From NCBI GenBank assembly GCA_964388265.1, contig CAYLXZ010000018.1:2134-13455 (forward strand): 11,322 nt of DNA, given 5' to 3'. This DNA is from Candidatus Micrarchaeota archaeon. GTDB taxonomy: Archaea; B1Sed10-29. Below, in pieces: positions 54 through 11,321 of this stretch. The notes beneath the pieces are model-generated. The model saw nothing but the letters and a program-made list of their open reading frames with translations, searched no databases and had not been told where the DNA came from. How positions within the stretch are numbered: the first letter of the stretch is position 1; every line of letters starts with the position of its first letter. Made by a program: the position numbers and the translations under genes.

Positions 54-2714
54 ATGTCGAACTTCTACCAATCAACCATACAAGAAACACTGAAGAAACT
101 AGGAACACGAGAAAAAGGACTAACCCAAGAAGAAGCAGAAGAAAAACTAGAGAAATACGGAGAGAACAAGCTAGAGAAAAAAGAAGAAATACATCCACTA
201 GAAATATTCCTAAGGCAGTTCAAAGACACACTAGTCATCATACTGATACTAGCCGCAGTATTCTCCTTCGCAATAGGACACATGCTCGACGGAGGATTCA
301 TCGTCATAATAGTTATCCTGAACTCAATACTAGGATTCATACAAGAATACAAAGCCGAAGAATCCCTACAGAAACTCAAAGAAATGACCGCGCCCGAAGC
401 AATCGTTATACGAGACGGAGAAGAGGAGAAAATTCCAGCAAAGAAACTAGTGCCAGGAGACATCATACTCATACAACAAGGAGACAAAGTACCCGCGGAC
501 GCCAGAATAATAGAATCCATGAACTTCAAGGTAAACGAAGCAGTCCTAACAGGAGAATCCCTACCAGAAGACAAACACGAAGAAAAGATAAAAGAAGAAA
601 GACAGCCAAGTGAAAGAACAAACATGGTGTACATGGGTTCAACAGCCACATACGGACATGCAAAAGCCATAGTAACAGCCACAGGGATGGAAACCGAGTT
701 CGGAGAAATAGCAGGATTAATAACCGAAAGAGAAAAAACCACACCACTACAGAAGAAACTAGCTACCTTTGGAAAAAGACTAGGAGCAGTTATACTCGCA
801 GTAGCAGCCATCATATCCATAATAGGGATACTTCAAGGTGGATCCACAGTGCAGATGATTCTAACAGGTATCACTCTGGCAGTGGCAGCTATTCCAGAGG
901 GACTACCCGCAGTAGTCACCATCACCCTAGGCCTAGGTGTAAAGAAGATGGCGAAAGAAAACGCCCTAGTAAGAAAACTACCAGCCGTAGAAACACTAGG
1001 ATCCACAACAGTCATATGCAGTGACAAAACAGGAACAATAACCAGAAACGAGATGACTGTGGAGAAAATCAAGACCGAAGCAAACGAATTCAAAGTAACC
1101 GGATCAGGATACAAAGAAGAAGGAGAATTCAAGCTAGATGAAGAAGAGATAGATCCAGAGAAATACAAAGAACTACATCTAGCTCTGGAAACTGGCTTCC
1201 TCTGCAATAATGCTGAAGTAAGAGACGACTCCGTGCTAGGAGACCCAACAGAAGGAGCTCTATTCGTAGTAGGTGAAAAAGCAGGAATAGAAAAAGAAAA
1301 ACACGGAGAAAGACTTCATGAAATACCATTCAGTTCAAATAGAAAAAGAATGACAGTGGTATACGAGAATGAAGAGAAAATGGCTTACGTCAAAGGAGCC
1401 GCGGAAACGATTCTAGAAAGATGCAACAGATACATGGAGAACGGAGAAATCAAAGAACTAACTGAAAAGAAGAAAGAGAAATTCATCAAGGAAAACGACG
1501 AAATGAGCTCCAGCGGACTAAGAGTACTGGCCATGGCACACAAGAAACTAGAGAAAGACATAGATGAGATAGAAGATGAAGAAATAGAAGAAGATTTGAT
1601 TTTCACTGGATTAATCGGTATGATAGACGCTCCTAGAGAAGGAGTAAAAGAAGATATAGAGAAATGCAGGCAAGCAGGAATAGACGTGAAGATGATAACA
1701 GGAGACAACGAACAAACAGCTCGAGCAGTAGCAAAAGAAGTTGGATTAAGCGATGAAGAACCAACCACAGGGAAAGAAATAGATAAACTAACCGACGAAG
1801 AGTTAAGAGAAGTAGTGGAAGAGAAAAAAGTGTTCGCAAGAGTATCTCCAAAACACAAAGTAAGGATAGTTGAAGCCCTCAAAAACAATGACGAAGTTGT
1901 AGCAGTCACAGGAGACGGAGTGAACGATGCACCCGCACTCAAAAAAGGACACATAGGCATATCAATGGGAATAACAGGCACCGACGTCACGAAAGAAACC
2001 GGGGAAATGATTCTACTCGATGATGACTTCAGCACCATAGTCCAGGCAGTTGAAAGAGGAAGAAACATCTACCAGAACATAAAGAAATTCGTCAGATACC
2101 TCCTAAGCTGTAACGCAGGAGAAGTAGCTACAATGCTGTTCGCCGTGTTAGCTGCATTCGCCTACCTACCACTTTTACCTGTTCAAATACTATGGGTGAA
2201 CCTAGTTACCGATGGACTACCAGCACTAGCGCTTGGATCCGATCCACTGGACCCAGAAGAAATGAAGAGACCACCAAGAGACAAACATGAAAGCATAATT
2301 GACAGAGAGATGGTTTTCCTAATCATATTCGTTGGCATAATAATGGCAGCGGGAACACTATTCATGTTCACCAACATCTCCTCAGGTAAAGCTACCCATA
2401 GAACCATTGCATTCACCGCGCTGATAACCATGCAGATGTTCCTTGTCTACAGCATGAAAGCAAGAGGCCCAATGAATATAAGGGACATCACCGAGAACAA
2501 AAAACTCATAGCAGCTACCACCGGATCCATGGCACTTCAGGTAATGGTCGTATACCTGCCATTCATGAATGTAATTCTACATACAACTCCCCTAGCTCCA
2601 TGGGTATGGGGAGCAGTACTAGGACTAGGTCTACTATCTCTAATCGTGGTAGAAACTGGAAAAAGAATATTCCTATATCTAGATCCTGAAGAATGGACCA
2701 CAAGAATAAGTTAA
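54..2714 (+). CDS. Cation-translocating P-type ATPase, type IIA (SERCA/PMR1-like, probable Ca2+ pump), 886 aa
   Basis: All P-type motifs are present: LTGES (A domain), IPEGLP (TM4), CSDKTGT phosphorylation site, KGA, MITGD and TGDGVNDAPAL. TM5 LSCNAGEV and TM6 QILWVNLVTDGLPALALG closely match the SERCA Ca2+-site helices. Confidence 0.95.
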   Translation: MSNFYQSTIQETLKKLGTREKGLTQEEAEEKLEKYGENKLEKKEEIHPLEIFLRQFKDTLVIILILAAVFSFAIGHMLDGGFIVIIVILNSILGFIQEYKAEESLQKLKEMTAPEAIVIRDGEEEKIPAKKLVPGDIILIQQGDKVPADARIIESMNFKVNEAVLTGESLPEDKHEEKIKEERQPSERTNMVYMGSTATYGHAKAIVTATGMETEFGEIAGLITEREKTTPLQKKLATFGKRLGAVILAVAAIISIIGILQGGSTVQMILTGITLAVAAIPEGLPAVVTITLGLGVKKMAKENALVRKLPAVETLGSTTVICSDKTGTITRNEMTVEKIKTEANEFKVTGSGYKEEGEFKLDEEEIDPEKYKELHLALETGFLCNNAEVRDDSVLGDPTEGALFVVGEKAGIEKEKHGERLHEIPFSSNRKRMTVVYENEEKMAYVKGAAETILERCNRYMENGEIKELTEKKKEKFIKENDEMSSSGLRVLAMAHKKLEKDIDEIEDEEIEEDLIFTGLIGMIDAPREGVKEDIEKCRQAGIDVKMITGDNEQTARAVAKEVGLSDEEPTTGKEIDKLTDEELREVVEEKKVFARVSPKHKVRIVEALKNNDEVVAVTGDGVNDAPALKKGHIGISMGITGTDVTKETGEMILLDDDFSTIVQAVERGRNIYQNIKKFVRYLLSCNAGEVATMLFAVLAAFAYLPLLPVQILWVNLVTDGLPALALGSDPLDPEEMKRPPRDKHESIIDREMVFLIIFVGIIMAAGTLFMFTNISSGKATHRTIAFTALITMQMFLVYSMKARGPMNIRDITENKKLIAATTGSMALQVMVVYLPFMNVILHTTPLAPWVWGAVLGLGLLSLIVVETGKRIFLYLDPEEWTTRIS

Positions 2715-2740: not shown

Positions 2741-3943
2741 GTGAGCAAGATGGATGAGAAACAGAAACAGGAACTCAAGAAAAAGATAAAAAAACTCAAA
2801 GAAATGAAAGGAGAAGGCACAGAACTAATCAGCCTATACATACCACCGGACTACAACGTATCACAAGAAGTCCGAAGGCTGAAAACTGAGTACAGCGAAG
2901 CAGCCAACATCAAGTCAAAATCCACGAGAAAAAACGTTCAATCAGCAGTTAAGAGCCTTCTTCAAACTCTTAAAGGAGTTAATAAACCACCTGAGAACGG
3001 AGTAGCTCTATTCTGCGGTTACATAGACGGAAAAGTAGAACAATACAAGATAGTTCCCCCAGAACCCATCCAGAGCAATCTATACAGATGCAGCAATGAA
3101 TTCTACCTAGAGCCGCTGGAAAAACTAGTGGAATCCAGAGAAAAATACGGGTTAGTCGCAATAGACGGAAAAACCGCTACAATAGGGAAATTAAGAGGAA
3201 AAAACGTGGAGATAATACAGCAGTTCTCATCCAAGGTACCCAGCAAACACACAAAAGGAGGATGGAGCCAGAAAAGATTCGAAAGACTCATCAACGAAGC
3301 AAAACACGAGTACTTCAAAAAAGTAGCAAGCGTAGTGAACCAAGAATTCCAAGATGATGAGATAAAAGGCGTTATACTCGGAGGACCAGGGCAAAGCAAA
3401 GACAAACTACACAACGAAGAATACCTAAACAAAAAAGTAATGGATAAAGTAATGGGAAAAGTCAGCACCAGCTACGCCGATGAATCAGGAATAAACGAGC
3501 TCCTGGACAAATCCGAAGACATGATAAGAGACCTAGAGGTGCAGAGAGAAAGACAGAGTATAAATGACTTCATACAAAAGATATCAACGAACGAACTAGC
3601 CACCTACGGTTTAAAAGAAGTCACGCAGGCACTTAAGAAAGGCAAGGTAAAGAAACTTCTAATATCCAATGAAGTGGACTGGGAAAAAGTAAAAGTAAAG
3701 TGCCCAAACTGCGGAGAAGAGAAAAAACTAGTCAAAGACTGGGAAGAATTCCAAGAACAAGGACGAAAATGCCCTGAATGCGGAGAAGAAAGAAACATAG
3801 AAGACAAGAAAAAGATAACTGACAAACTAGAGGAACTAGCAGAACAAACAGGAGCAGAAGTAGAGTACATATCCACGGACACAGATAAAGGACAGCAGTT
3901 CCACGAAGCATTCGGAGGAATAGGCGCAATACTCCGATACTGA
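2741..3943 (+). CDS. prf1: Peptide chain release factor aRF1 (eRF1/aRF1 family) with non-canonical GGWSQ catalytic loop and a Zn-ribbon minidomain. GTG start at 2741, alternative ATG at 2750.
   Basis: N domain: GTELISLYIPP, EAANIKSKSTRKNV (NIKS), PPENGVALFCG, LYRCSNEF (YxCxxxF). M domain: VPSKHTKGGWSQKRFER and ILGGPG. C domain: ATYG, CPNC...CPEC and terminal FGGIGAILRY. Confidence 0.92.
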   Translation: MSKMDEKQKQELKKKIKKLKEMKGEGTELISLYIPPDYNVSQEVRRLKTEYSEAANIKSKSTRKNVQSAVKSLLQTLKGVNKPPENGVALFCGYIDGKVEQYKIVPPEPIQSNLYRCSNEFYLEPLEKLVESREKYGLVAIDGKTATIGKLRGKNVEIIQQFSSKVPSKHTKGGWSQKRFERLINEAKHEYFKKVASVVNQEFQDDEIKGVILGGPGQSKDKLHNEEYLNKKVMDKVMGKVSTSYADESGINELLDKSEDMIRDLEVQRERQSINDFIQKISTNELATYGLKEVTQALKKGKVKKLLISNEVDWEKVKVKCPNCGEEKKLVKDWEEFQEQGRKCPECGEERNIEDKKKITDKLEELAEQTGAEVEYISTDTDKGQQFHEAFGGIGAILRY

Positions 3944-3966: not shown

Positions 3967-5064
3967 ATGTACGAGATAAAGAAGAACCCAAAGGACTTCA
4001 AAGTCGAAGAGATCACTCCAAACAAAGAAACACTCAAAATAAATAAAGACTACAGTTTCAATCCTTCAAGCAAGGGAGATCATCTAGTATGCGTTCTAGT
4101 TAAGAGAGACTGGGAGCAGAACAAAGCCATCAAAGAAATAAGCAACCGGCTGCATATCTCCAGGAAGAGAATAAGCTACGCCGGAACCAAGGACAAGAGA
4201 GCCTTAACAAGCCAGAGAATCTCAATCCGGAAAGCAGAACCCAAAGACATAGAGGAAATGAAGATAAAAGACATCGAGATACATTCAATAAAGAAATCCG
4301 TGGATAAAGTAGCCATGGGAGACCTATGGGGAAACAAATTCACAATAAAAGTAAATACAGACCAAGAAATCAAGGAAAGCATAGTTCCGGAGAAGGTGCC
4401 TAACTACTTCGGGCACCAGAGATTCGGAAAAATAAGACCAATAACTCACCTGGTTGGGAAAGCACTTCTTGAAGAGAATCCGGAGAAAGCAGTGAAGATA
4501 TATCTCGCTAAAACCTTTGAGGATGAAAGCGAAGATGCTAAGAAAGCCAGAGAATGGCTCAAAGAGAACTGGGAAGAAAAACCGTTTAAAGAAGCTCTGA
4601 AGAAGTATCCTGACTACCTAGGGTACGAGAGAACACTTATACATCACTTGGCGGAGTACCCACGGGACTTCATAAACGCGATCCGTGAACTGCCAAAGAA
4701 CCTGGAGATAATGTTCATACACGCCTACCAGAGCCATCTATTCAACCAATATATAGATAAAGTAAAAGATAAAGATATCCAACAGGAAAAAGGACCGATA
4801 TACGGATACAAAACAGAGCTAGAGAACGAATACGAAGAAGAAGTGCTGGAAGAAGAAAACTTGAACCTAGATGATTTCAAGAATAGCCTGATGCCTGAGA
4901 TAAGTGTGGAAGGAGAAAGAAGAGAACTATTTATCGACCTAAAGGACTTCGAGATCCTTGAAGAAGGAAAAGGTTACTACGTAGTTAGTTTTTCCCTACC
5001 AAAGGGAAGCTACGCCACAGTTGTAATGGATGAAATCTTTAAAAAGAATGAAGAGGAAGTATAA
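3967..5064 (+). CDS. truD: tRNA pseudouridine(13) synthase TruD, 365 aa
   Basis: Motifs PKDFKVEEI, SYAGTKDKRALTSQRISI (catalytic Asp in GTKD), GDLWGNKFTI, PNYFGHQRFG, HAYQSHLFN and FSLPKGSYATVV. Confidence 0.95.
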   Translation: MYEIKKNPKDFKVEEITPNKETLKINKDYSFNPSSKGDHLVCVLVKRDWEQNKAIKEISNRLHISRKRISYAGTKDKRALTSQRISIRKAEPKDIEEMKIKDIEIHSIKKSVDKVAMGDLWGNKFTIKVNTDQEIKESIVPEKVPNYFGHQRFGKIRPITHLVGKALLEENPEKAVKIYLAKTFEDESEDAKKAREWLKENWEEKPFKEALKKYPDYLGYERTLIHHLAEYPRDFINAIRELPKNLEIMFIHAYQSHLFNQYIDKVKDKDIQQEKGPIYGYKTELENEYEEEVLEEENLNLDDFKNSLMPEISVEGERRELFIDLKDFEILEEGKGYYVVSFSLPKGSYATVVMDEIFKKNEEEV

Positions 5065-5067
5065 TCA

Positions 5068-6366
5068 ATGGATGATAAATCAAAGATTTTACTGCTAGAG
5101 GCAGCTGTAATCATCATCTTCCTATCTCTAGCTTTTGTTCCTAGAATGTATCCTGATGAAGGAACTTACCTGAACTACGGTGAAGCATGGAGAACCGGTG
5201 AATTAATTCCCAGTGCGGAGATACCTGTTCTGCATAGACCTGTATTTGTTTCATTGGTTTCCTTGGTATCTAACCTTTCTCTTTCTTTAGCTAGGTTAAT
5301 TCTTCTTCCCTTCGTGATGGGTTCAGTTTACTTAGCGTATTTAATCGGTGAAAAGCTTGATTTACGTGGAGAAATTACCTCTATTCCTTTATTGCTTTCA
5401 CCTATCTTTCTTTTTTATCTAGGGACCTTGCTTCCTGACTTCCTCTTGGTCTTCTTTATCTTACTATCCATCTACCTGTTCATAAAGTCGGTTAAGGAGA
5501 ATGATGTGAAGTGGAGTTACTTCGCGGGTTTATCAACTGCTCTGGCAGTTCTCACGAAGGAATCAGGCGCTCTATTAATCCCAGTGTTCCTGGTTTTCTA
5601 TAAAGAATTTGACTACAAGAGATTCTTAGCAGCTTCCTTGATTCCCATAGGGCTTTATATCCTGGTTATTGGTCGGGACTTCTTTCTATTCCTTGGTTAC
5701 TCGCTAAAGTACTCTTTCCCTATAGCTCAGCCAGGTATCAATACTTTTGTGAACATGGTTTCAATGGGACTTGGAGGAGTTCTATTTCTCTCTATCCTGG
5801 GTCTATGGAAGATGGATTACGGTGAATTCAAGACCAAGTTCTCTTTAGCTTACTGCCTTGTGTTTATTCCCATTACTCTGGCTCTGAGTTCCACATGGGT
5901 AGAGAGATACGCTATACTTTTCCTACCTGGATTACTGATCCCTTCAGCCATGGGCTTAAAGGAGATATGGAGGAAGAAGTACCTTATCCTTATTTTACTT
6001 ATTCTTATCCTAGGTACAGGTGCTTATCTGTATTCTGATCTGTCGAAAGCAGAGGAAGAATGGGGAACCAGTAAATACAGATCAGGGCTAGAAGCTATTT
6101 CTTCCTACCAAGATGAAGAGGTATTCATGCAGATAAATGACGAGCAGGTAAGGTGGATCACAGGTTCAAATAGATTTAAGAAGCTTCCAAGGAACTACGA
6201 GCAGTTCAAAGAAGCCACTGGATGTGAAGAAGTAACTGTCGCGATGTGGAAGTACGGTGAAGCCACGATATGGGAACCATATTACTGGAATGAAGAGATC
6301 TCGAAGTCCATTATAAAAGAAACTGATGAAGTAAAAATATTCAAAGCGAACTGCACGGGTCAATAA
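5068..6366 (+). CDS. GT-C fold membrane glycosyltransferase (ArnT/PMT-like, GT39/GT83-type), 432 aa
   Basis: Polytopic membrane protein with PDEGTY (the DE pair after TM1), HRPV, LLPDFLLVFF, GLSTALAVLTKESG and ERYAILFLP, then a C-terminal soluble domain. This is the usual layout of lipid-phosphate-sugar-dependent GT-C enzymes. It starts 3 nt after the truD stop. Confidence 0.8.
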   Translation: MDDKSKILLLEAAVIIIFLSLAFVPRMYPDEGTYLNYGEAWRTGELIPSAEIPVLHRPVFVSLVSLVSNLSLSLARLILLPFVMGSVYLAYLIGEKLDLRGEITSIPLLLSPIFLFYLGTLLPDFLLVFFILLSIYLFIKSVKENDVKWSYFAGLSTALAVLTKESGALLIPVFLVFYKEFDYKRFLAASLIPIGLYILVIGRDFFLFLGYSLKYSFPIAQPGINTFVNMVSMGLGGVLFLSILGLWKMDYGEFKTKFSLAYCLVFIPITLALSSTWVERYAILFLPGLLIPSAMGLKEIWRKKYLILILLILILGTGAYLYSDLSKAEEEWGTSKYRSGLEAISSYQDEEVFMQINDEQVRWITGSNRFKKLPRNYEQFKEATGCEEVTVAMWKYGEATIWEPYYWNEEISKSIIKETDEVKIFKANCTGQ

Positions 6367-7835
6367 GTCCTGTTCACGACCTCTTCACATAGGTCCGATC
6401 CCGGTGAAACAGGTTCATCTATCAATTTATACACTCTATAATCTTCGTTGGAGTAAACTTCTTTAAATCTACCGTGTTTGGAGACGTATGGGAAACCTGT
6501 ACAGGTTTCTCTTTCCACTACCCTATAGAGCATGTAACTCGAGTTGTATTTCTCCATTATACGAATCGTTTCATTTGCTTTGCTGGTGGCCATGGCTCTC
6601 CTTATGTCGTGGTATCTTTCATCTACATTAGGAGCGTATTCTAGGTAAGCGTCCATCACGTTCTTTCTCTCAGCTACTCCTGTTATGTAGTGTCCTTCTG
6701 TCCAGTAGGCCATCACCGTAGCGTTTTCAGGAGTATTGTTCTTTATCCAGGTCATTGCTCTGTATTGATTTGGTTTTGGTGGGGAAGTTATCATCTTTAT
6801 CCCTGGCATGACTATAACTAGGATCAGGTAGACTACTACCGCTATCTTCAGTAGCTTGGTTGGAACTATATCTAGCTTGAGATCAGATCTTAAGTCCTTG
6901 AACTTGGTGGCGAACACCGTGCCCGCTATTATGGATATTGGGAATATTATAACATCGTTCATTCTGCTGAATATTAGTAGAGAGGCAAGTGCACCTATTA
7001 GTAGCCATTCTCTAACTGGCTTGGTGACTCTTCCATCGAGTTTGAAGAACCCGTAGATAGCCATGATGACCACGGCAACATTGAATGAGATCGCTGTCAA
7101 GCCTGATTCGATTATGAAGAACTGTATACCGCTGCTGAACTCCACGAATATATCATAGGCTTCATATCTCTGGAATAACCCATATTTATCTATGAGAGGA
7201 TAGAAGTAGGTTGCGAAGAACGCTAGGAAAGCGGTGGAGAAAGGTAGGATTAATCTCTTTAGTTTTCTTCTCAATATGAATGCACCTATCAACAGCATCG
7301 AGATCCCCACAAGAGGACTTAGATACAGAGCGAATAACACAGGGATGAATGAAAGAGCATTGAGTTTTTTGTTATCTTTGTTGATCATCAGGAAGCTTAA
7401 AAGCATCACTATCAAGGCTGGTAAGCGTGGGTTGAGATGTATGGAGAAATAGGAGTAAGCTGGATTGAAGAAAAGGAATACAGAAGCATATAGAGACTGT
7501 TTATCAGTTAACCCTAAGTCCTTAGTGAAGAAGTAACATAGTACTATGCCTAGGCCACCTATCAATGGAGCTAAGATGAATTTAGCCGCTGGCATGAGAT
7601 GGATCATCCATGAGAAAGCTGGAGGATACGTCAAGGGCCTTCCTCCAAAGGATAAGGGATCGGTCCGTGCTCCTGATACGATTAAATCAGCTATTCTGGT
7701 GTGATAGTAGGTGGTGCCTCCGTACATGGAGTTATGGTAAAGAAAGACTCTGAGTACCTGAGGAAGAGTGAATATAATGGTGGCGATAACAGCAAAGATA
7801 ATCAACTTCTGTTTGGAGCTAAAGTCATTGAACAT
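6360..7835 (-). CDS. STT3/AglB-like (oligosaccharyltransferase-fold, GT-C) membrane protein with degenerate motifs, 491 aa
   Basis: N-terminal TYYHTRI...DPLSFGGRPLTYPP resembles the STT3 DxYYH...DP..YP.G..YPP loop, followed by multiple TM segments. C-terminal AMTWIKNNTPENATVMAYWTEGHYITGVAERKNVMD aligns with the STT3 WLxxNTPxxxxVxSWWDYG...xR segment. The stop overlaps the convergent gene by 7 bp. Confidence 0.72.
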   Translation of the reverse strand: MFNDFSSKQKLIIFAVIATIIFTLPQVLRVFLYHNSMYGGTTYYHTRIADLIVSGARTDPLSFGGRPLTYPPAFSWMIHLMPAAKFILAPLIGGLGIVLCYFFTKDLGLTDKQSLYASVFLFFNPAYSYFSIHLNPRLPALIVMLLSFLMINKDNKKLNALSFIPVLFALYLSPLVGISMLLIGAFILRRKLKRLILPFSTAFLAFFATYFYPLIDKYGLFQRYEAYDIFVEFSSGIQFFIIESGLTAISFNVAVVIMAIYGFFKLDGRVTKPVREWLLIGALASLLIFSRMNDVIIFPISIIAGTVFATKFKDLRSDLKLDIVPTKLLKIAVVVYLILVIVMPGIKMITSPPKPNQYRAMTWIKNNTPENATVMAYWTEGHYITGVAERKNVMDAYLEYAPNVDERYHDIRRAMATSKANETIRIMEKYNSSYMLYRVVERETCTGFPYVSKHGRFKEVYSNEDYRVYKLIDEPVSPGSDLCEEVVNRTY

Positions 7836-7930
7836 CTTTATCTTACCTTCAAGGATCCCTTGTTCTATTGAAAAGAACCCGTGGTATTTATCTTCTTCGG
7901 ACCCTAGATACTTCGCCTTTCATGTTCTAC

Positions 7931-7940
7931 TTAATAAAAA
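7931..7940 (-). promoter_or_regulatory. TATA-like element TTTTTATTAA upstream of the AglB-like gene (could instead be part of an oligo-T terminator)
   Basis: It has the same TTTATTAA core as the element upstream of the ATPase and lies about 95 nt upstream of the ATG at 7835, directly after a pyrimidine tract on the - strand. Confidence 0.3.
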
Positions 7941-7949
7941 GAGATTGAG

Positions 7950-8009
7950 AAAGAGGGAAAGGACATGGGTAAGAGATAAGTAACTGCATTCCCCGTCTTT
8001 CCTATCTTT
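7950..8009. repeat. Imperfect inverted repeat / stem-loop in the intergenic region between GT2 and the AglB-like gene
   Basis: Left arm AAAGAGGGAAAGGACATGGG (7950-7969) pairs with right arm CCCCGTCTTTCCTATCTTT (7991-8009) as AAAGA/TCTTT, GGAAA/TTTCC, GAC/GTC and GGG/CCC with small bulges, around a 21-nt loop. Confidence 0.55.
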
Positions 8010-8101
8010 TAAAATAGTTTGACAAGTATCTTAATGGATGGTGATATCTCTACTTTTTGTTTAATAGGTTCTTCAGTTGCTTTATTGGAAGGAAAACAGA
8101 G

Positions 8102-8776
8102 TTATATTCCTGTTGTCCAGGACCTGAGAACTGATTTGGCTAGATAGGTTCCGAGTTTAAAGCTTTTGCTCCATCCGAGTTCGTTGAACTTGAAGCTCTT
8201 TGGCGGGTAATCTATCTCGACTGGTATGTACTTCATCTCCATACCTCTAGATATGGCTTTTAGGTTTATCTCGGACTCTACTTCGAATCCGTCTTTCTCA
8301 AGGCCTAGGTCCAGGAAATCTTCTCGGTATACTGCTCTTATTCCGCATATTGCGTCCTCTACTTTTTTCCCTGTTGCTAGGAGTACGGCTAGTTTTGCTA
8401 AAGCGTTGTTCACTCTTCGTGGCCATGGTACCTTGTTGAAGTTTCTTTTCCCGGTTACCAGTGTTCCTGGTTCAAGTTCTTTTAAAAACCTGGGTAGTTT
8501 TTCTATTTGGTGTTGGTCGGCGTCCGTGAATATTATCTTTTCTCCATTCGCTTCCTTTGCTCCTTTTCTCATCGCGTAGCCTTTACCTTGGTTAGGTGTG
8601 TAGTGTATTACTTGGTCTGCTCCTGCTTTCTCAGCTAGTTCAGTGGTTTTGTCGTTTGATCCGTCGTCAACGACCATTACTTCAAATTCTTCATCTAAAG
8701 ATAGTTTCCTAAGTTCTTTCACTGTGTTCTCTATGTTTTCTTCTTCGTTGTAGGATGGTACTATTATTGTTATCAT
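8102..8776 (-). CDS. Glycosyltransferase family 2, DPM1-like polyprenol/dolichol-phosphate sugar synthase, 224 aa
   Basis: Motifs IIVPSYNEEENI, VVDDGSNDKT, NQGKGYA, FTDAD (DxD), DAICGIRA and FEVESEI. No TM tail. Its start overlaps the upstream stop (ATGA, 8773-8776). Confidence 0.9.
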   Translation of the reverse strand: MITIIVPSYNEEENIENTVKELRKLSLDEEFEVMVVDDGSNDKTTELAEKAGADQVIHYTPNQGKGYAMRKGAKEANGEKIIFTDADQHQIEKLPRFLKELEPGTLVTGKRNFNKVPWPRRVNNALAKLAVLLATGKKVEDAICGIRAVYREDFLDLGLEKDGFEVESEINLKAISRGMEMKYIPVEIDYPPKSFKFNELGWSKSFKLGTYLAKSVLRSWTTGI

Positions 8777-9705
8777 CGGTGGAACACCTTTTCATCTATT
8801 GCTGTGGCTGTTAACCCTACTGCGCTAGGTAGCCATACTCTTATGGTGCTCCATAGGATCAGGAAGCTTCCTATTACTCCTTGTGATAATCCGAAGTACG
8901 CCATGGATAGCACTAGGTATCCTCCGCCTTCTGCTACGCCTATTCCTTTTGGTGTCAGAGTCAGTAGTGTTAGGCTATGTCCTACTGATGCGAATATGAA
9001 TACTTGGATTATCGAGAGGTTTACTCCTAGTGATGAGAATAGTAGTGCTATCGTGGTTATCTCTAGCACGGTGGAGAGAATTAGTAGGATGACTATGATA
9101 GTTGATCTTTTTGGGTTGAGGCTGTGGAACTGTTCTTTGAGTTGTTCGTGGAATCTTATTGCGTAGTATTTCTTGAATATCTTGCCTATTAGGTGTGTGA
9201 ATTTCTTGAATCGGAATAAGAGCACGATTATTGCTCCTGTCATGGTTAGTACTAGTCCTGCTAGGAAGAACACGAGGTTTTGGTTGAAGTCAGGTGACCT
9301 GGGTGCGAGTAGCACTATGGCTAGGAGTAGTAGGAAGAACATGAGGAGGAATTTCCAGAACTTGACCATGAAGCTGGTTGCTATGGCTTCTGATCCGCTT
9401 GAGTTTTCCTTTCTGGAGAAGTAGGCTCTTAGTAGGTCTGCTCCGAATCCTGTTGGTGCGAATAGCCCCATTAGTGCTTTGGTGTTTATTCTTAGGCATT
9501 TTTTGAATGGTTCTTTCATGAGGTAGTTCCAGGCTAGGAACCAGAGGTATAGTGATCCTAGGAATGATAGTGCTCCGGCTGTGAGTAGTAGTAGATTGGC
9601 TTTGTAGAGGGCTTGTGGGTCTGTGAATTTGAATAGCGCTGCTATTACTCCTATTGCTACTGTTATCCAGAGTATTCTTTTTATCTTGTCTTTCATTTGA
9701 TCCAC
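8773..9705 (-). CDS. Lysylphosphatidylglycerol-synthase TM domain / UPF0104 flippase-like membrane protein (similar to the AglD C-terminal domain). GTG start at 9705 or ATG at 9696.
   Basis: About 310 aa with about 8 hydrophobic segments, PTGFGADLLRAYF (PxxxGG[ED]xxRxY-like) and LTPKGIGVAEGG (TPGGxGxxE signature). Translationally coupled to the GT2. Confidence 0.8.
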   Translation of the reverse strand: MDQMKDKIKRILWITVAIGVIAALFKFTDPQALYKANLLLLTAGALSFLGSLYLWFLAWNYLMKEPFKKCLRINTKALMGLFAPTGFGADLLRAYFSRKENSSGSEAIATSFMVKFWKFLLMFFLLLLAIVLLAPRSPDFNQNLVFFLAGLVLTMTGAIIVLLFRFKKFTHLIGKIFKKYYAIRFHEQLKEQFHSLNPKRSTIIVILLILSTVLEITTIALLFSSLGVNLSIIQVFIFASVGHSLTLLTLTPKGIGVAEGGGYLVLSMAYFGLSQGVIGSFLILWSTIRVWLPSAVGLTATAIDEKVFHR

Positions 9706-9725: not shown

Positions 9726-10289
9726 TTAGTTGAAGAATTTATCTGTTAGGTAGTTCACTGTGCCTAGTAGGTGTTGTGGTGTTTTTGCTTTCACTGTGAT
9801 TGTGTTGTTTTCTACTATGACTTTGTTTTCTTCGTAGTTCGGGTACTTTAAGTGTATGAGTAGTTTATCTGTGTTTTTGATGTTCATGCATTGTTGTAGT
9901 GTCTTGTTTTTTATTGATGCTTTTTCTGTGGCGTTTATCTGTGCGCATGTCTTGGGTTCTCCGTCTTGGTATCCTATTTGATGTATTTGACTTAGGTTTA
10001 TTTCGTGGTTTGTTAGTGTGAATGCTATGTTGCTCATGGATTTTATGATTAGTGAGTTTCCTTCTGTTTCATCTATGTCTTGTTCGAAGATTAGTTGGGT
10101 TTGGTTGTTTTGTTGTATTAGTGTTTCTAGGTGTTGTGTTGGTTTTTGTTTTGAGTGTATGCATAGGTCTTTGTAGCATGCTTTGTTGTATTTTGACTGT
10201 GGTTGTGTGAATATGTAGATGTTGATTGCTGCGAGTATTAGTGCTAGAGTTATTCCGGTGTAGAGTATTGTTTTCTGTTTCTCGTCCAT
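9726..10289 (-). CDS. Hypothetical protein with a single N-terminal TM anchor/signal and an extracellular Cys-pair domain, 187 aa
   Basis: N-terminal hydrophobic helix TILYTGITLALILAAINIYIF, 4 Cys and five N-x-S/T sequons. Codon usage (A/C-ending) matches neighbouring genes, and there is an SD-like AGAGGA upstream. Confidence 0.75.
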   Translation of the reverse strand: MDEKQKTILYTGITLALILAAINIYIFTQPQSKYNKACYKDLCIHSKQKPTQHLETLIQQNNQTQLIFEQDIDETEGNSLIIKSMSNIAFTLTNHEINLSQIHQIGYQDGEPKTCAQINATEKASIKNKTLQQCMNIKNTDKLLIHLKYPNYEENKVIVENNTITVKAKTPQHLLGTVNYLTDKFFN

Positions 10290-10469: not shown

Positions 10470-11321
10470 TTATGCGGTTAGCAGTGTTATTAGTTCGTCT
10501 GCTGCGTTTGCTGTGTCTGTTGCGCTGTATCCTGCTGCTAGTAGTTTGTTTCCGTCTTCTGCTAGTACGGCGTTTCCTTGTGTTGTTAGGTCGCTTGCTC
10601 CACTCATTCCGTCTGCTACTGAGTTTACGCTTGGTCCACCTACAACTACTTGGTATTGTGCCGTTGCAGATCCGTCCATTGTTATTAGGTCTTGTGGTGT
10701 TGTTACTGTTTTCTGGGTGTCGTAGAATTCGTCTGCGTTTCCTATTGCTCCTTCGCCTGTTCCTTGGATGTCTAGGCTGGTTAGTTTCCAGTTTCCGAAT
10801 TCGTCGCCTTCGCTTACTGTCATTCCTTCTTCTCCACCTTCGTCTATTCCTGATACTTTTAGCAGTGTGCTTCTGTCTTTTTCCGGTAGGTATACTGTTG
10901 CTTTTTCTGTTCCTGTGTCTGTTATTTCTATTCCTGTTCCTGTGATGTGGTATTTGTCGGTTGTGTTTACATCGTTTTGTTGGTAGTCTATGTAGTCTGT
11001 GTCTCCAAAGCTTGAAGATCCTGCTTTTATTCCTTCGTCGTCGGCGTCCGCATCGTATGATGCGTATACTTTATCTCCTGAACCGCCATCGGTTAGTAGT
11101 GCTTCTACTTCTTCTGAAGCTGCGGTTGCTGTTGCGTTGTATGCTCCGGATAGGTCTAGTGTTGGTGTTCCTGAGCTCATTACTGCTTGGTCTCCTAGCT
11201 GTACGTGGAATCTACTGGTTGATGGGTCTGCTATTGTGTCTCCTTTGATGTAGACTTTGTCGGTGTAGTTGTCTACTGTTGCTGTGAAGTCTAGTGCTTC
11301 TCCTCCTTGGTCTAACGTGAA
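10470..11321 (-). CDS. S-layer (glyco)protein, C-terminal part; 5' end lies beyond the window
   Basis: The frame stays open from the ATG at 11180 to the window edge (FTLDQGGEALDFTATVDNYTDKVYIKGDTIADPSTSRFHVQLGDQAV-M...). The C-terminus VVVGGPSVNSVA...LLAAGYSATDTANAADELI matches the archaeal S_layer_C signature (xxVGGPxxN...xVAGxxxxxTxxAA). It is acidic and Thr/Gly/Asp-rich with NYT, NAT and NTT sequons. Confidence 0.85.
   Translation of the reverse strand, partial: FTLDQGGEALDFTATVDNYTDKVYIKGDTIADPSTSRFHVQLGDQAVMSSGTPTLDLSGAYNATATAASEEVEALLTDGGSGDKVYASYDADADDEGIKAGSSSFGDTDYIDYQQNDVNTTDKYHITGTGIEITDTGTEKATVYLPEKDRSTLLKVSGIDEGGEEGMTVSEGDEFGNWKLTSLDIQGTGEGAIGNADEFYDTQKTVTTPQDLITMDGSATAQYQVVVGGPSVNSVADGMSGASDLTTQGNAVLAEDGNKLLAAGYSATDTANAADELITLLTA

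Follow-up and report, generated by a model that had tools for sequence, protein, structure and literature searches.

GGQ is regarded as the single motif common to all class-I release factors. The gene considered here encodes the archaeal class-I release factor aRF1, and it lies in a stretch of 11,322 nucleotides from Candidatus Micrarchaeota archaeon (assembly GCA_964388265.1, contig CAYLXZ010000018.1, positions 2,134 to 13,455 of the forward strand; this whole stretch is called the window), in which the catalytic loop reads GGWSQ. Among the related proteins, eukaryotic Vms1/ANKZF1 works in ribosome quality control, on split 60S subunits and without stop-codon reading; like the window protein, it has a release-factor-like M domain and a Gln in a non-GGQ context, although the two are not closely related. 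As given in the accessible text of Burroughs and Aravind (2019, PMC6514570), classical aeRF-1 has GGQ, the Vms1-like release factors aVLRF-1 of archaea and acVLRF-1 of Actinobacteria and Chloroflexi have GGxSQ, whose Gln is predicted to be catalytic, and eVLRF-1 (Vms1/ANKZF1) has GxuQ. In the same text, the N domain is retained in aVLRF-1 but absent from acVLRF-1, so the statement in the initial annotation of this DNA that VLRF1 types generally lack this domain holds for the second group and not for the first. For the canonical motif, the available part of PMC6144793 calls GGQ universal, reports that Mtq2 methylates the GGQ Gln of the H. volcanii aRF1, and states that this methylation is shared by the three domains of life and that every archaeon has an Mtq2 orthologue.

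An aRF1 with Trp at the GGQ position

The aRF1 gene (2741..3943, plus strand, as are all its parts below) encodes 400 amino acids (aa) from GTG 2741 and ends in TGA; the public gene call (P0005) starts at ATG 2750 and has 397 aa. The Pfam domains eRF1_1, eRF1_2 and eRF1_3 are all present, and the whole protein, with 462.9 bits for TIGR03676 (463.9 bits when the genome was searched), is above the curated cut-off of 234.7. The N domain, for stop-codon reading (2780..3127, residues 14-129; PF03463, 51.8 bits), contains NIKS (2906-2917, residues 56-59: N56, I57, K58 and S59) and YxCxxxF (3083-3103; Y115, C117 and F121), whose columns are invariant in an alignment of 30 aRF1 sequences. It is followed by the M domain, for peptidyl-tRNA hydrolysis (3143..3532, residues 135-264; PF03464, 130.1 bits), and the C domain (3542..3940, residues 268-400; PF03465, 80.3 bits), which has a zinc-ribbon insert of the CxxC...CxxC type (3701-3781) with C321, C324 and C344 nearly invariant. 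The AlphaFold2 model has a predicted local distance difference test score (pLDDT) of 84.3 and, in Foldseek, matches 4af1 at E 3.8e-41 and eRF1 5lzt_ii with a TM of 0.83; the closest solved sequence is also the Halobacterium aRF1, 4AF1 (290 bits).

As in the canonical aRF1s (4AF1, 3AGK/3VMF), the protein has the three domains, NIKS, YxCxxxF, the Gly-Gly pair, the loop length, the R-F pair and the zinc ribbon, it is single copy, and in the trees it falls with aRF1s from its own class. It differs from them in the catalytic loop, KHTKGGWSQKRFERL (3245..3289, residues 169-183), where codons GGA GGA TGG AGC CAG at 3257-3271 give GGWSQ, with GGW at residues 173-175. Trp175 (TGG, 3263..3265) takes the place of the universal catalytic Gln, and Gln177 (CAG, 3269..3271), fixed two residues after the Trp, is a candidate relocated catalytic Gln; Mtq2, in addition, was not found in the genome. 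The protein is thus an aRF1 by descent and architecture, with the score, three-domain structure, motifs and orthology of a classical aRF1, that departs from the functional hallmark GGQ. The initial annotation had described GGWSQ in a full stop-codon-reading factor keeping the N domain (NIKS, YxCxxxF) and the C domain, with truD adjoining, and this description is confirmed.

The Trp is conserved in the family. The source genome (725 kb, 82% complete) belongs to a GTDB family of the Micrarchaeota (DPANN) that is named f1 here. GGWSQ[KR]RFER is present in each of the seven closest database proteins (65-74% identical), and the next matches (51% identical or less) are all GGQS; the Trp175 column of the 30-sequence alignment has W in 8 and Q in 22. 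At the DNA level, TGG was found at codon 175 in 5/5 f1 genomes holding an aRF1, and GGQ in 25/25 non-f1 aRF1 loci read, while a DNA pattern for GGWSQxRF matched 5/6 f1 genomes versus 0/25 other genomes of the class. Contigs of a second sample, from what is probably the source study, are identical over codon 175, and in a run from a different study, with related strains at a depth of ~38-47, there are synonymous variants nearby and none at 3263-3271. Because the sister lineages carry CAG or CAA at codon 175, two to three base changes are needed to reach TGG. That TGG is read as Trp in the source genome follows from residue 314, also TGG, which aligns with Trp in 18/30 aRF1s. Trp175 is therefore neither a sequencing error nor chance, and the argument of the initial annotation that a single sequencing error is unlikely stands. 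ARAGORN found 21 tRNAs in the 82%-complete source assembly, none of them tRNA-Trp; this absence, together with that of 23S rRNA from the same assembly, most likely reflects assembly gaps or intron-bearing tRNAs.

The genome search found one aRF1 and one Pelota in the source genome, and no second aRF1, aVLRF1 or bacterial RF-1 domain. Exactly one aRF1 is present in 5/6 f1 genomes, with the same aRF1 and Pelota pair and no second aRF1 found; in the sixth (72% complete), no aRF1 was found. The 617 long open reading frames (ORFs) of the source genome, from crude calls, end in TAA (311), TAG (154) and TGA (152), and with the standard code the crude gene calls account for 83% of the genome, indicating that all three stop codons are in use. 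It could be argued that this gene is a specialised paralogue, with a true GGQ aRF1 in the unassembled 18% of the genome, or that the Trp is an assembly error, and the completeness of 82% leaves some room for it. This is hardly credible, since 5/5 f1 genomes, as well as the 3 Nitrososphaerota and 15 crenarchaeal genomes described below, each show one aRF1 only, and TGG is kept across orthologues 65-74% identical and in contigs of an independent study. The specialised ribosome-rescue paralogue contemplated by the initial annotation is likewise not supported, as no second aRF1 was found in the f1 genomes.

Six related DPANN genomes (G007:C105, G012:C3, G018:C31, G019:C12, G027:C73 and G029:C36) have aRF1 profile matches in two pieces, split at position 174, which is the GGQ loop, inside single open frames of 862-997 aa. 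Because the match splits at this position within one long frame, a putative intein inserted at the catalytic motif is suggested for these six aRF1 genes.

The loop itself is of the VLRF1 type, as the initial annotation had recognized: the accessible text of PMC6514570 gives GGxSQ for aVLRF-1 and acVLRF-1, and among the matches listed in our survey, x is Trp in nearly all fetched proteins of the aVLRF1 and baeRF family 10 types. The fetched KH[ST]KGGWSQ[KR]RFERL loops of the aVLRF-1/acVLRF-1 kind are up to 100% identical to that of the source aRF1. Beyond the shared GGxSQ, however, aVLRF-1 carries a coiled coil at its N terminus, lacks a C domain, scores 31-61 bits with TIGR03676 and occurs beside a canonical GGQ aRF1 in the genomes checked (G104, G105 and G107), whereas the source aRF1 has a C domain and no coiled coil, is the sole aRF1 of its genome, has an M domain whose best family is not acVLRF1 and does not cluster with aVLRF1. 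The baeRF family 10 proteins also share a KHKKGGWSQxRF loop and the M and C domains with it, but their best family is PF18854 (68-91 bits), their TIGR03676 scores are below the cut-off (59-146 bits), eRF1_1 is not detected, and they are paralogues beside a GGQ aRF1 in 4/4 genomes checked (G104, G105, G106 and G108). For the source M domain, eRF1_2 gives 130.1 bits versus 57.8 for baeRF_family10 (PF18854) and 48.6 for acVLRF1; PF18854 is thus not its best family, and baeRF family 10 forms a separate clade. Pelota/Dom34, of the same superfamily and present in the source genome, has a different N domain and no catalytic loop, whereas the loop of the source aRF1 is strictly conserved.

Two of the collected proteins differ from the others. 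A third aRF1-like ORF of Methanolobus (L270, G104:C5; 347 aa, KHSKGGFSQRRFERL) has the sole Phe-for-Trp GGxSQ loop seen. An aVLRF1-like ORF labelled Candidatus Nanoarchaeia archaeon (L112) is one residue away, in the loop region, from that of a Methanosarcinales metagenome-assembled genome (MAG; L045), which may be a binning artefact or a transfer.

Domain identities place the whole protein, outside the loop, with the aRF1s. Identity to 17 neighbouring Micrarchaeota GGQ aRF1s is 52% for the N, 47% for the M and 47% for the C domain, with 45% in the part of M preceding the loop and 44% in the part that follows. The aVLRF1-like and baeRF family 10 proteins are 14-29% identical to the source aRF1 outside the 15-residue loop, including 14-24% in the M domain (14-15% to aVLRF1), while within the loop mean identity is 92% to aVLRF1 loops versus 67% to the neighbouring GGQ aRF1 loops. 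Two trees were built, the first with 100 rows and the loop columns, and the second with 99 rows after removal of the loop columns and of a misfit ORF (L213), with 84-85 aRF1 rows among them. The f1 sequences form one clade (100*) within the aRF1s, with its exact sister group not resolved, and this clade joins neither aVLRF1 nor baeRF10 with the loop columns in or out. baeRF10 is a separate clade (support 87 in the first tree and 99* in the rebuilt one), and the placement of aVLRF1 is unreliable, with a branch of ~3 changes per column and a position that differs between the two trees. Among the possibilities that the initial annotation had considered, a chimera made by exchange of the M domain is rejected on the aRF1-like identity of this domain outside the loop, and an intermediate between aRF1 and VLRF1 is not supported, the clade being nested among aRF1s. 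The best fit among its four alternatives would be a main terminator with a shifted catalytic Gln, this being the only aRF1 found in 5/5 family genomes.

Recurrence of the loop in archaea

A degenerate DNA pattern for KHxxGGW[S]xxRF, in which the +2 position was free, was run against a set with a single genome for each prokaryotic species and matched at least 120 loci. Among the matches listed, 98/99 GGW ORFs of more than 150 residues have W-S-Q, across four protein families, and most of them fall by Pfam and NCBIfam into two groups: the aVLRF1-like proteins (~315 aa; N terminus a coiled coil, best family acVLRF1) and baeRF family 10 (Methanosarcinales, Thermoplasmata, Archaeoglobi and some bacteria). 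The genomes with such loop proteins that were checked also hold a canonical GGQS aRF1 (5/5, 551-595 bits). Four bona fide aRF1s were found among the listed loci, one in a Nitrososphaerota MAG (478 bits) and three in crenarchaeal MAGs (384-388 bits) labelled Desulfurococcaceae, Candidatus Zestomicrobium tamdykulense and Sulfolobales; each of these four genomes has that aRF1 and Pelota only.

The relatives of these MAGs show that the change is not unique to the source genome and recurs in two other archaeal phyla, again with Mtq2 not found alongside. The 31 crenarchaeal relatives comprise 15 with GGWSQRR[FY], 14 with GGQSQRR[FY], one with a loop not parsed and one in which no aRF1 was found; the 15 GGW genomes form a Desulfurococcales-like clade with GGWSQ in the sole aRF1. 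Among the 31 Nitrososphaerota relatives, three (G041, G075 and G076) have GGWSQ in the sole aRF1, two have gene fragments only, one had no aRF1 found and 25 have GGQS, 22 of these 25 with GGQSQ. Three changes of the GGW label are required by the trees (clade supports 100*, 100* and 98*), and because each GGW clade is nested among the GGQ aRF1s of its own group, the switch in the sole aRF1 has arisen at least three times in archaea.

Residue 175 is the only aRF1 position that changes in all three lineages, with no convergent changes seen elsewhere in the protein, and in the 26 GGW aRF1 loops G, G, S, Q, R and F are strictly conserved and the length is constant. The residue at +2 is Q in 26/26 GGW aRF1 rows, while in the GGQ aRF1 rows it is Q in 35, A in 12, S in 9, H in 1 and K in 1. 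The neighbours of f1 carry S, A, H or K there, so f1 gained the +2 Gln along with the Trp. The crenarchaeal and Nitrososphaerota sisters have CAG|TCT|CAG where the GGW genes have TGG|TCT|CAG, one codon and two base changes apart, and the switch in these two lineages thus reads as a single-codon CAG to TGG change on a GGQSQ background.

In the SYADESG region at the end of the M domain (window 3476-3490, residues 246-250), the conserved Thr of S-Y-T-D-E is replaced by Ala in f1 and by Ser in the Nitrososphaerota GGW clade. At residue 249, too, these two lineages differ from the sister groups, and the crenarchaeal clade is without such a change.

The likeness of the loops raises the question of their origin. 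Gene conversion of up to 15 codons from an aVLRF1 or baeRF10 paralogue would fit either functional reading discussed below, and it draws on the f1 loop KHTKGGWSQ[KR]RFERL, up to 100% identical to aVLRF1 loops, as well as on the point-mutation route, whose two base changes would pass through a stop (TAG) or Arg (CGG) codon. It is considered quite unlikely: the GGW genomes searched yielded aRF1 and Pelota only, with neither an aVLRF1 nor a baeRF10 gene found among them; the crenarchaeal and Nitrososphaerota sister loops differ from the GGW loops at one codon only; and on either side of its loop the f1 sequence resembles aRF1.

Mtq2 and the candidate catalytic Gln

The presence of Mtq2, which methylates the Gln of GGQ, was scored with the archaeal model TIGR00537, using the curated cut-off for the f1 and Nitrososphaerota sets. 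For the crenarchaeal set, a criterion of E <= 1e-10 with near full-length coverage was used instead because only 8/31 genomes pass the curated cut-off, all 8 of them GGQ. Mtq2 was detected in 0/6 f1 genomes versus 28/35 others, and in 0/15 crenarchaeal GGW versus 13/14 GGQ genomes. For Nitrososphaerota it was detected in 0/5 genomes of the GGW group, defined as the three GGW genomes and their two nearest relatives, versus 22/26 others. Mapped on the tree rows, GGW genomes are without Mtq2 in 23/23 cases and GGQ genomes have it in 50/57; GGW together with Mtq2 was never seen among the genomes scored. The surroundings of Gln177, S-Q-K-R, do not fit the G-Q-X3-R preferred by human HEMK2 according to the available part of PMC10804810. 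Genome G059 (L188), which belongs to the group sister to the crenarchaeal GGW clade, keeps GGQSQ and has no Mtq2-like match at E <= 1e-10; it may represent an intermediate state or be an incomplete genome.

It is proposed here that the f1 aRF1, an orthologue of other aRF1s, is probably the family's one working class-I release factor, with a loop switched from GGQ to GGWSQ, a relocated catalytic Gln and no need for methylation. By analogy with the GGxSQ families, where the Gln is predicted to be catalytic, Gln177 would take over the positioning of the hydrolytic water in the peptidyl-transferase center, while Trp175 would keep the backbone NH of the old Gln position and fill the pocket normally used by N5-methyl-Gln. 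Such a factor would then need no methylation, and Mtq2, left without a substrate, could have been lost; alternatively, Mtq2 loss may have come first and favored the switch.

Several points weigh against this proposal. The analysis as a whole is computational, the source genome is incomplete (82%), and there are three independent origins only. The coincidences between GGW and missing Mtq2 likewise number three, not 23, and a paired test with 2-3 pairs is below the reach of significance. The Mtq2 counts for genomes G041-G103 come with no completeness given, and those of the crenarchaeal set depend on the looser criterion. Mtq2 was also not found in 7/57 GGQ tree genomes, so the loss of Mtq2 is not confined to GGW genomes. 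The +2 Gln of the crenarchaeal and Nitrososphaerota lineages was already invariant before the switch, and its conservation alone therefore shows no new catalytic role there. Within the M domain of the AlphaFold2 model, confidence is lowest at the loop (residues 161-180, with 10-residue blocks at a mean pLDDT of 74 and 64), so that the reach of Gln177 to the ester bond is not decided by this model. Finally, the 23S peptidyl-transferase core gave no sign of a compensating change: in G002 (f1) and in G046, G047 and G053 (crenarchaeal GGW), its nucleotides 2061-2063, 2251-2252, 2451, 2506, 2553, 2583-2585 and 2602 (E. coli numbering) are unchanged, and no GGW-specific difference is common to these genomes; 23S rRNA was not found in the source assembly, and the copy of G041 ends before domain V.

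A separate observation on the 23S rRNA concerns the column of E. coli G2505, normally a highly conserved position, which has U in three DPANN genomes (L233 of G002, L237 of G011 and L239 of G012), one of them GGW and two GGQ. C2452 and A2453 are also variable, and the G2505 difference, seen in a MAFFT alignment, may be an alignment artefact.

Some of these points would equally suit a working main terminator in which Gln177 is structural only and catalysis is due to the backbone NH at residue 175 and the ribosome, making the side chain at 175 replaceable, the Trp having been fixed after Mtq2 loss because an unmethylated Gln works poorly. Bacterial release factors in which this Gln is changed to Ala keep much of their release activity, and those with Pro do not. 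Such a terminator would also agree with the unchanged Gly-Gly and loop length, with the +2 Gln that pre-existed in two of the three lineages and with the GGQ genomes without Mtq2 (e.g., G059), in which Mtq2 loss could precede the switch. It is nevertheless regarded as rather unlikely, because among the matches listed 98/99 GGW ORFs in four families keep S-Q after the Trp, f1 acquired the +2 Gln together with the Trp, and the same two-base change to Trp took place three times, which points to a specific requirement and not merely to a tolerated residue.

Two further explanations question whether the GGW factor hydrolyses the ester bond at all. The loop, being of the VLRF1 type, might cut the 3' end of the tRNA, as eukaryotic Vms1/ANKZF1 reportedly does. 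Cutting a tRNA at every termination would be costly, and everything outside the loop is ordinary aRF1, which makes this activity exceedingly improbable. Alternatively, with the canonical catalytic Gln gone, the GGW aRF1 could be non-hydrolysing, reading the stop codon and recruiting ABCE1, while a different hydrolase releases the peptide afterwards, as in Pelota-type rescue; Pelota, without the Gln, is a non-catalytic precedent in the superfamily in the accessible text of PMC6514570. This is very improbable as well, since the same text describes the loop of inactive families as poorly conserved and variable in length, whereas loop sequence and length are strictly kept in 26/26 GGW aRF1s, and no bacterial-type RF/ArfB domain was found in the source genome.

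Flanking genes and meaning of the GGW factors

The aRF1 gene is preceded by a gene for a P-type cation-transporting ATPase (54..2714, plus strand; PF00122, PF00689, PF00690 and PF13246) and followed by truD for tRNA pseudouridine-13 synthase (3967..5064, plus strand; PF01142, 371.7 bits; TIGR00094, 268.7 bits). Downstream of truD, window 5068-9705 is, by Pfam, a run of membrane glycosylation genes, which includes a PMT_2 glycosyltransferase (5068-6366, plus strand), a weak Dpy19/AglB-like protein (6360-7835, minus strand), a family 2 glycosyltransferase (8102-8776, minus strand) and an LPG_synthase_TM protein (8773-9705, minus strand). Two more ORFs (9726-10289 and 10470-11180, both on the minus strand) have no match in Pfam.

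Taken together, the variant of an essential release factor is real and broader than the initial annotation held, with a coherent system-level correlate in Mtq2. The searchable literature, which most subscription journals lie outside, suggests that GGW in a sole aRF1 is undescribed. In whole archaeal clades, the sole release factor is without the GGQ Gln, and Mtq2 was not found beside it, which affects annotation pipelines and catalytic-site rules that demand GGQ.

With a little less than an even chance, GGWSQ may be an alternative, methylation-free loop of class-I release factors, reached by a convergent Gln shift in at least three lineages and shared with the aVLRF-1 and baeRF family 10 paralogues. 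If so, GGQ would not be obligatory in class-I release factors, and these lineages would be natural experiments on how a Vms1-like loop arises and works in a stop-codon-reading terminator. Should the GGW factors prove active, the canonical Gln position would be dispensable, the GGxSQ loop of Vms1-like factors could carry ordinary termination, and the purpose of Gln methylation, long open, would become directly testable.

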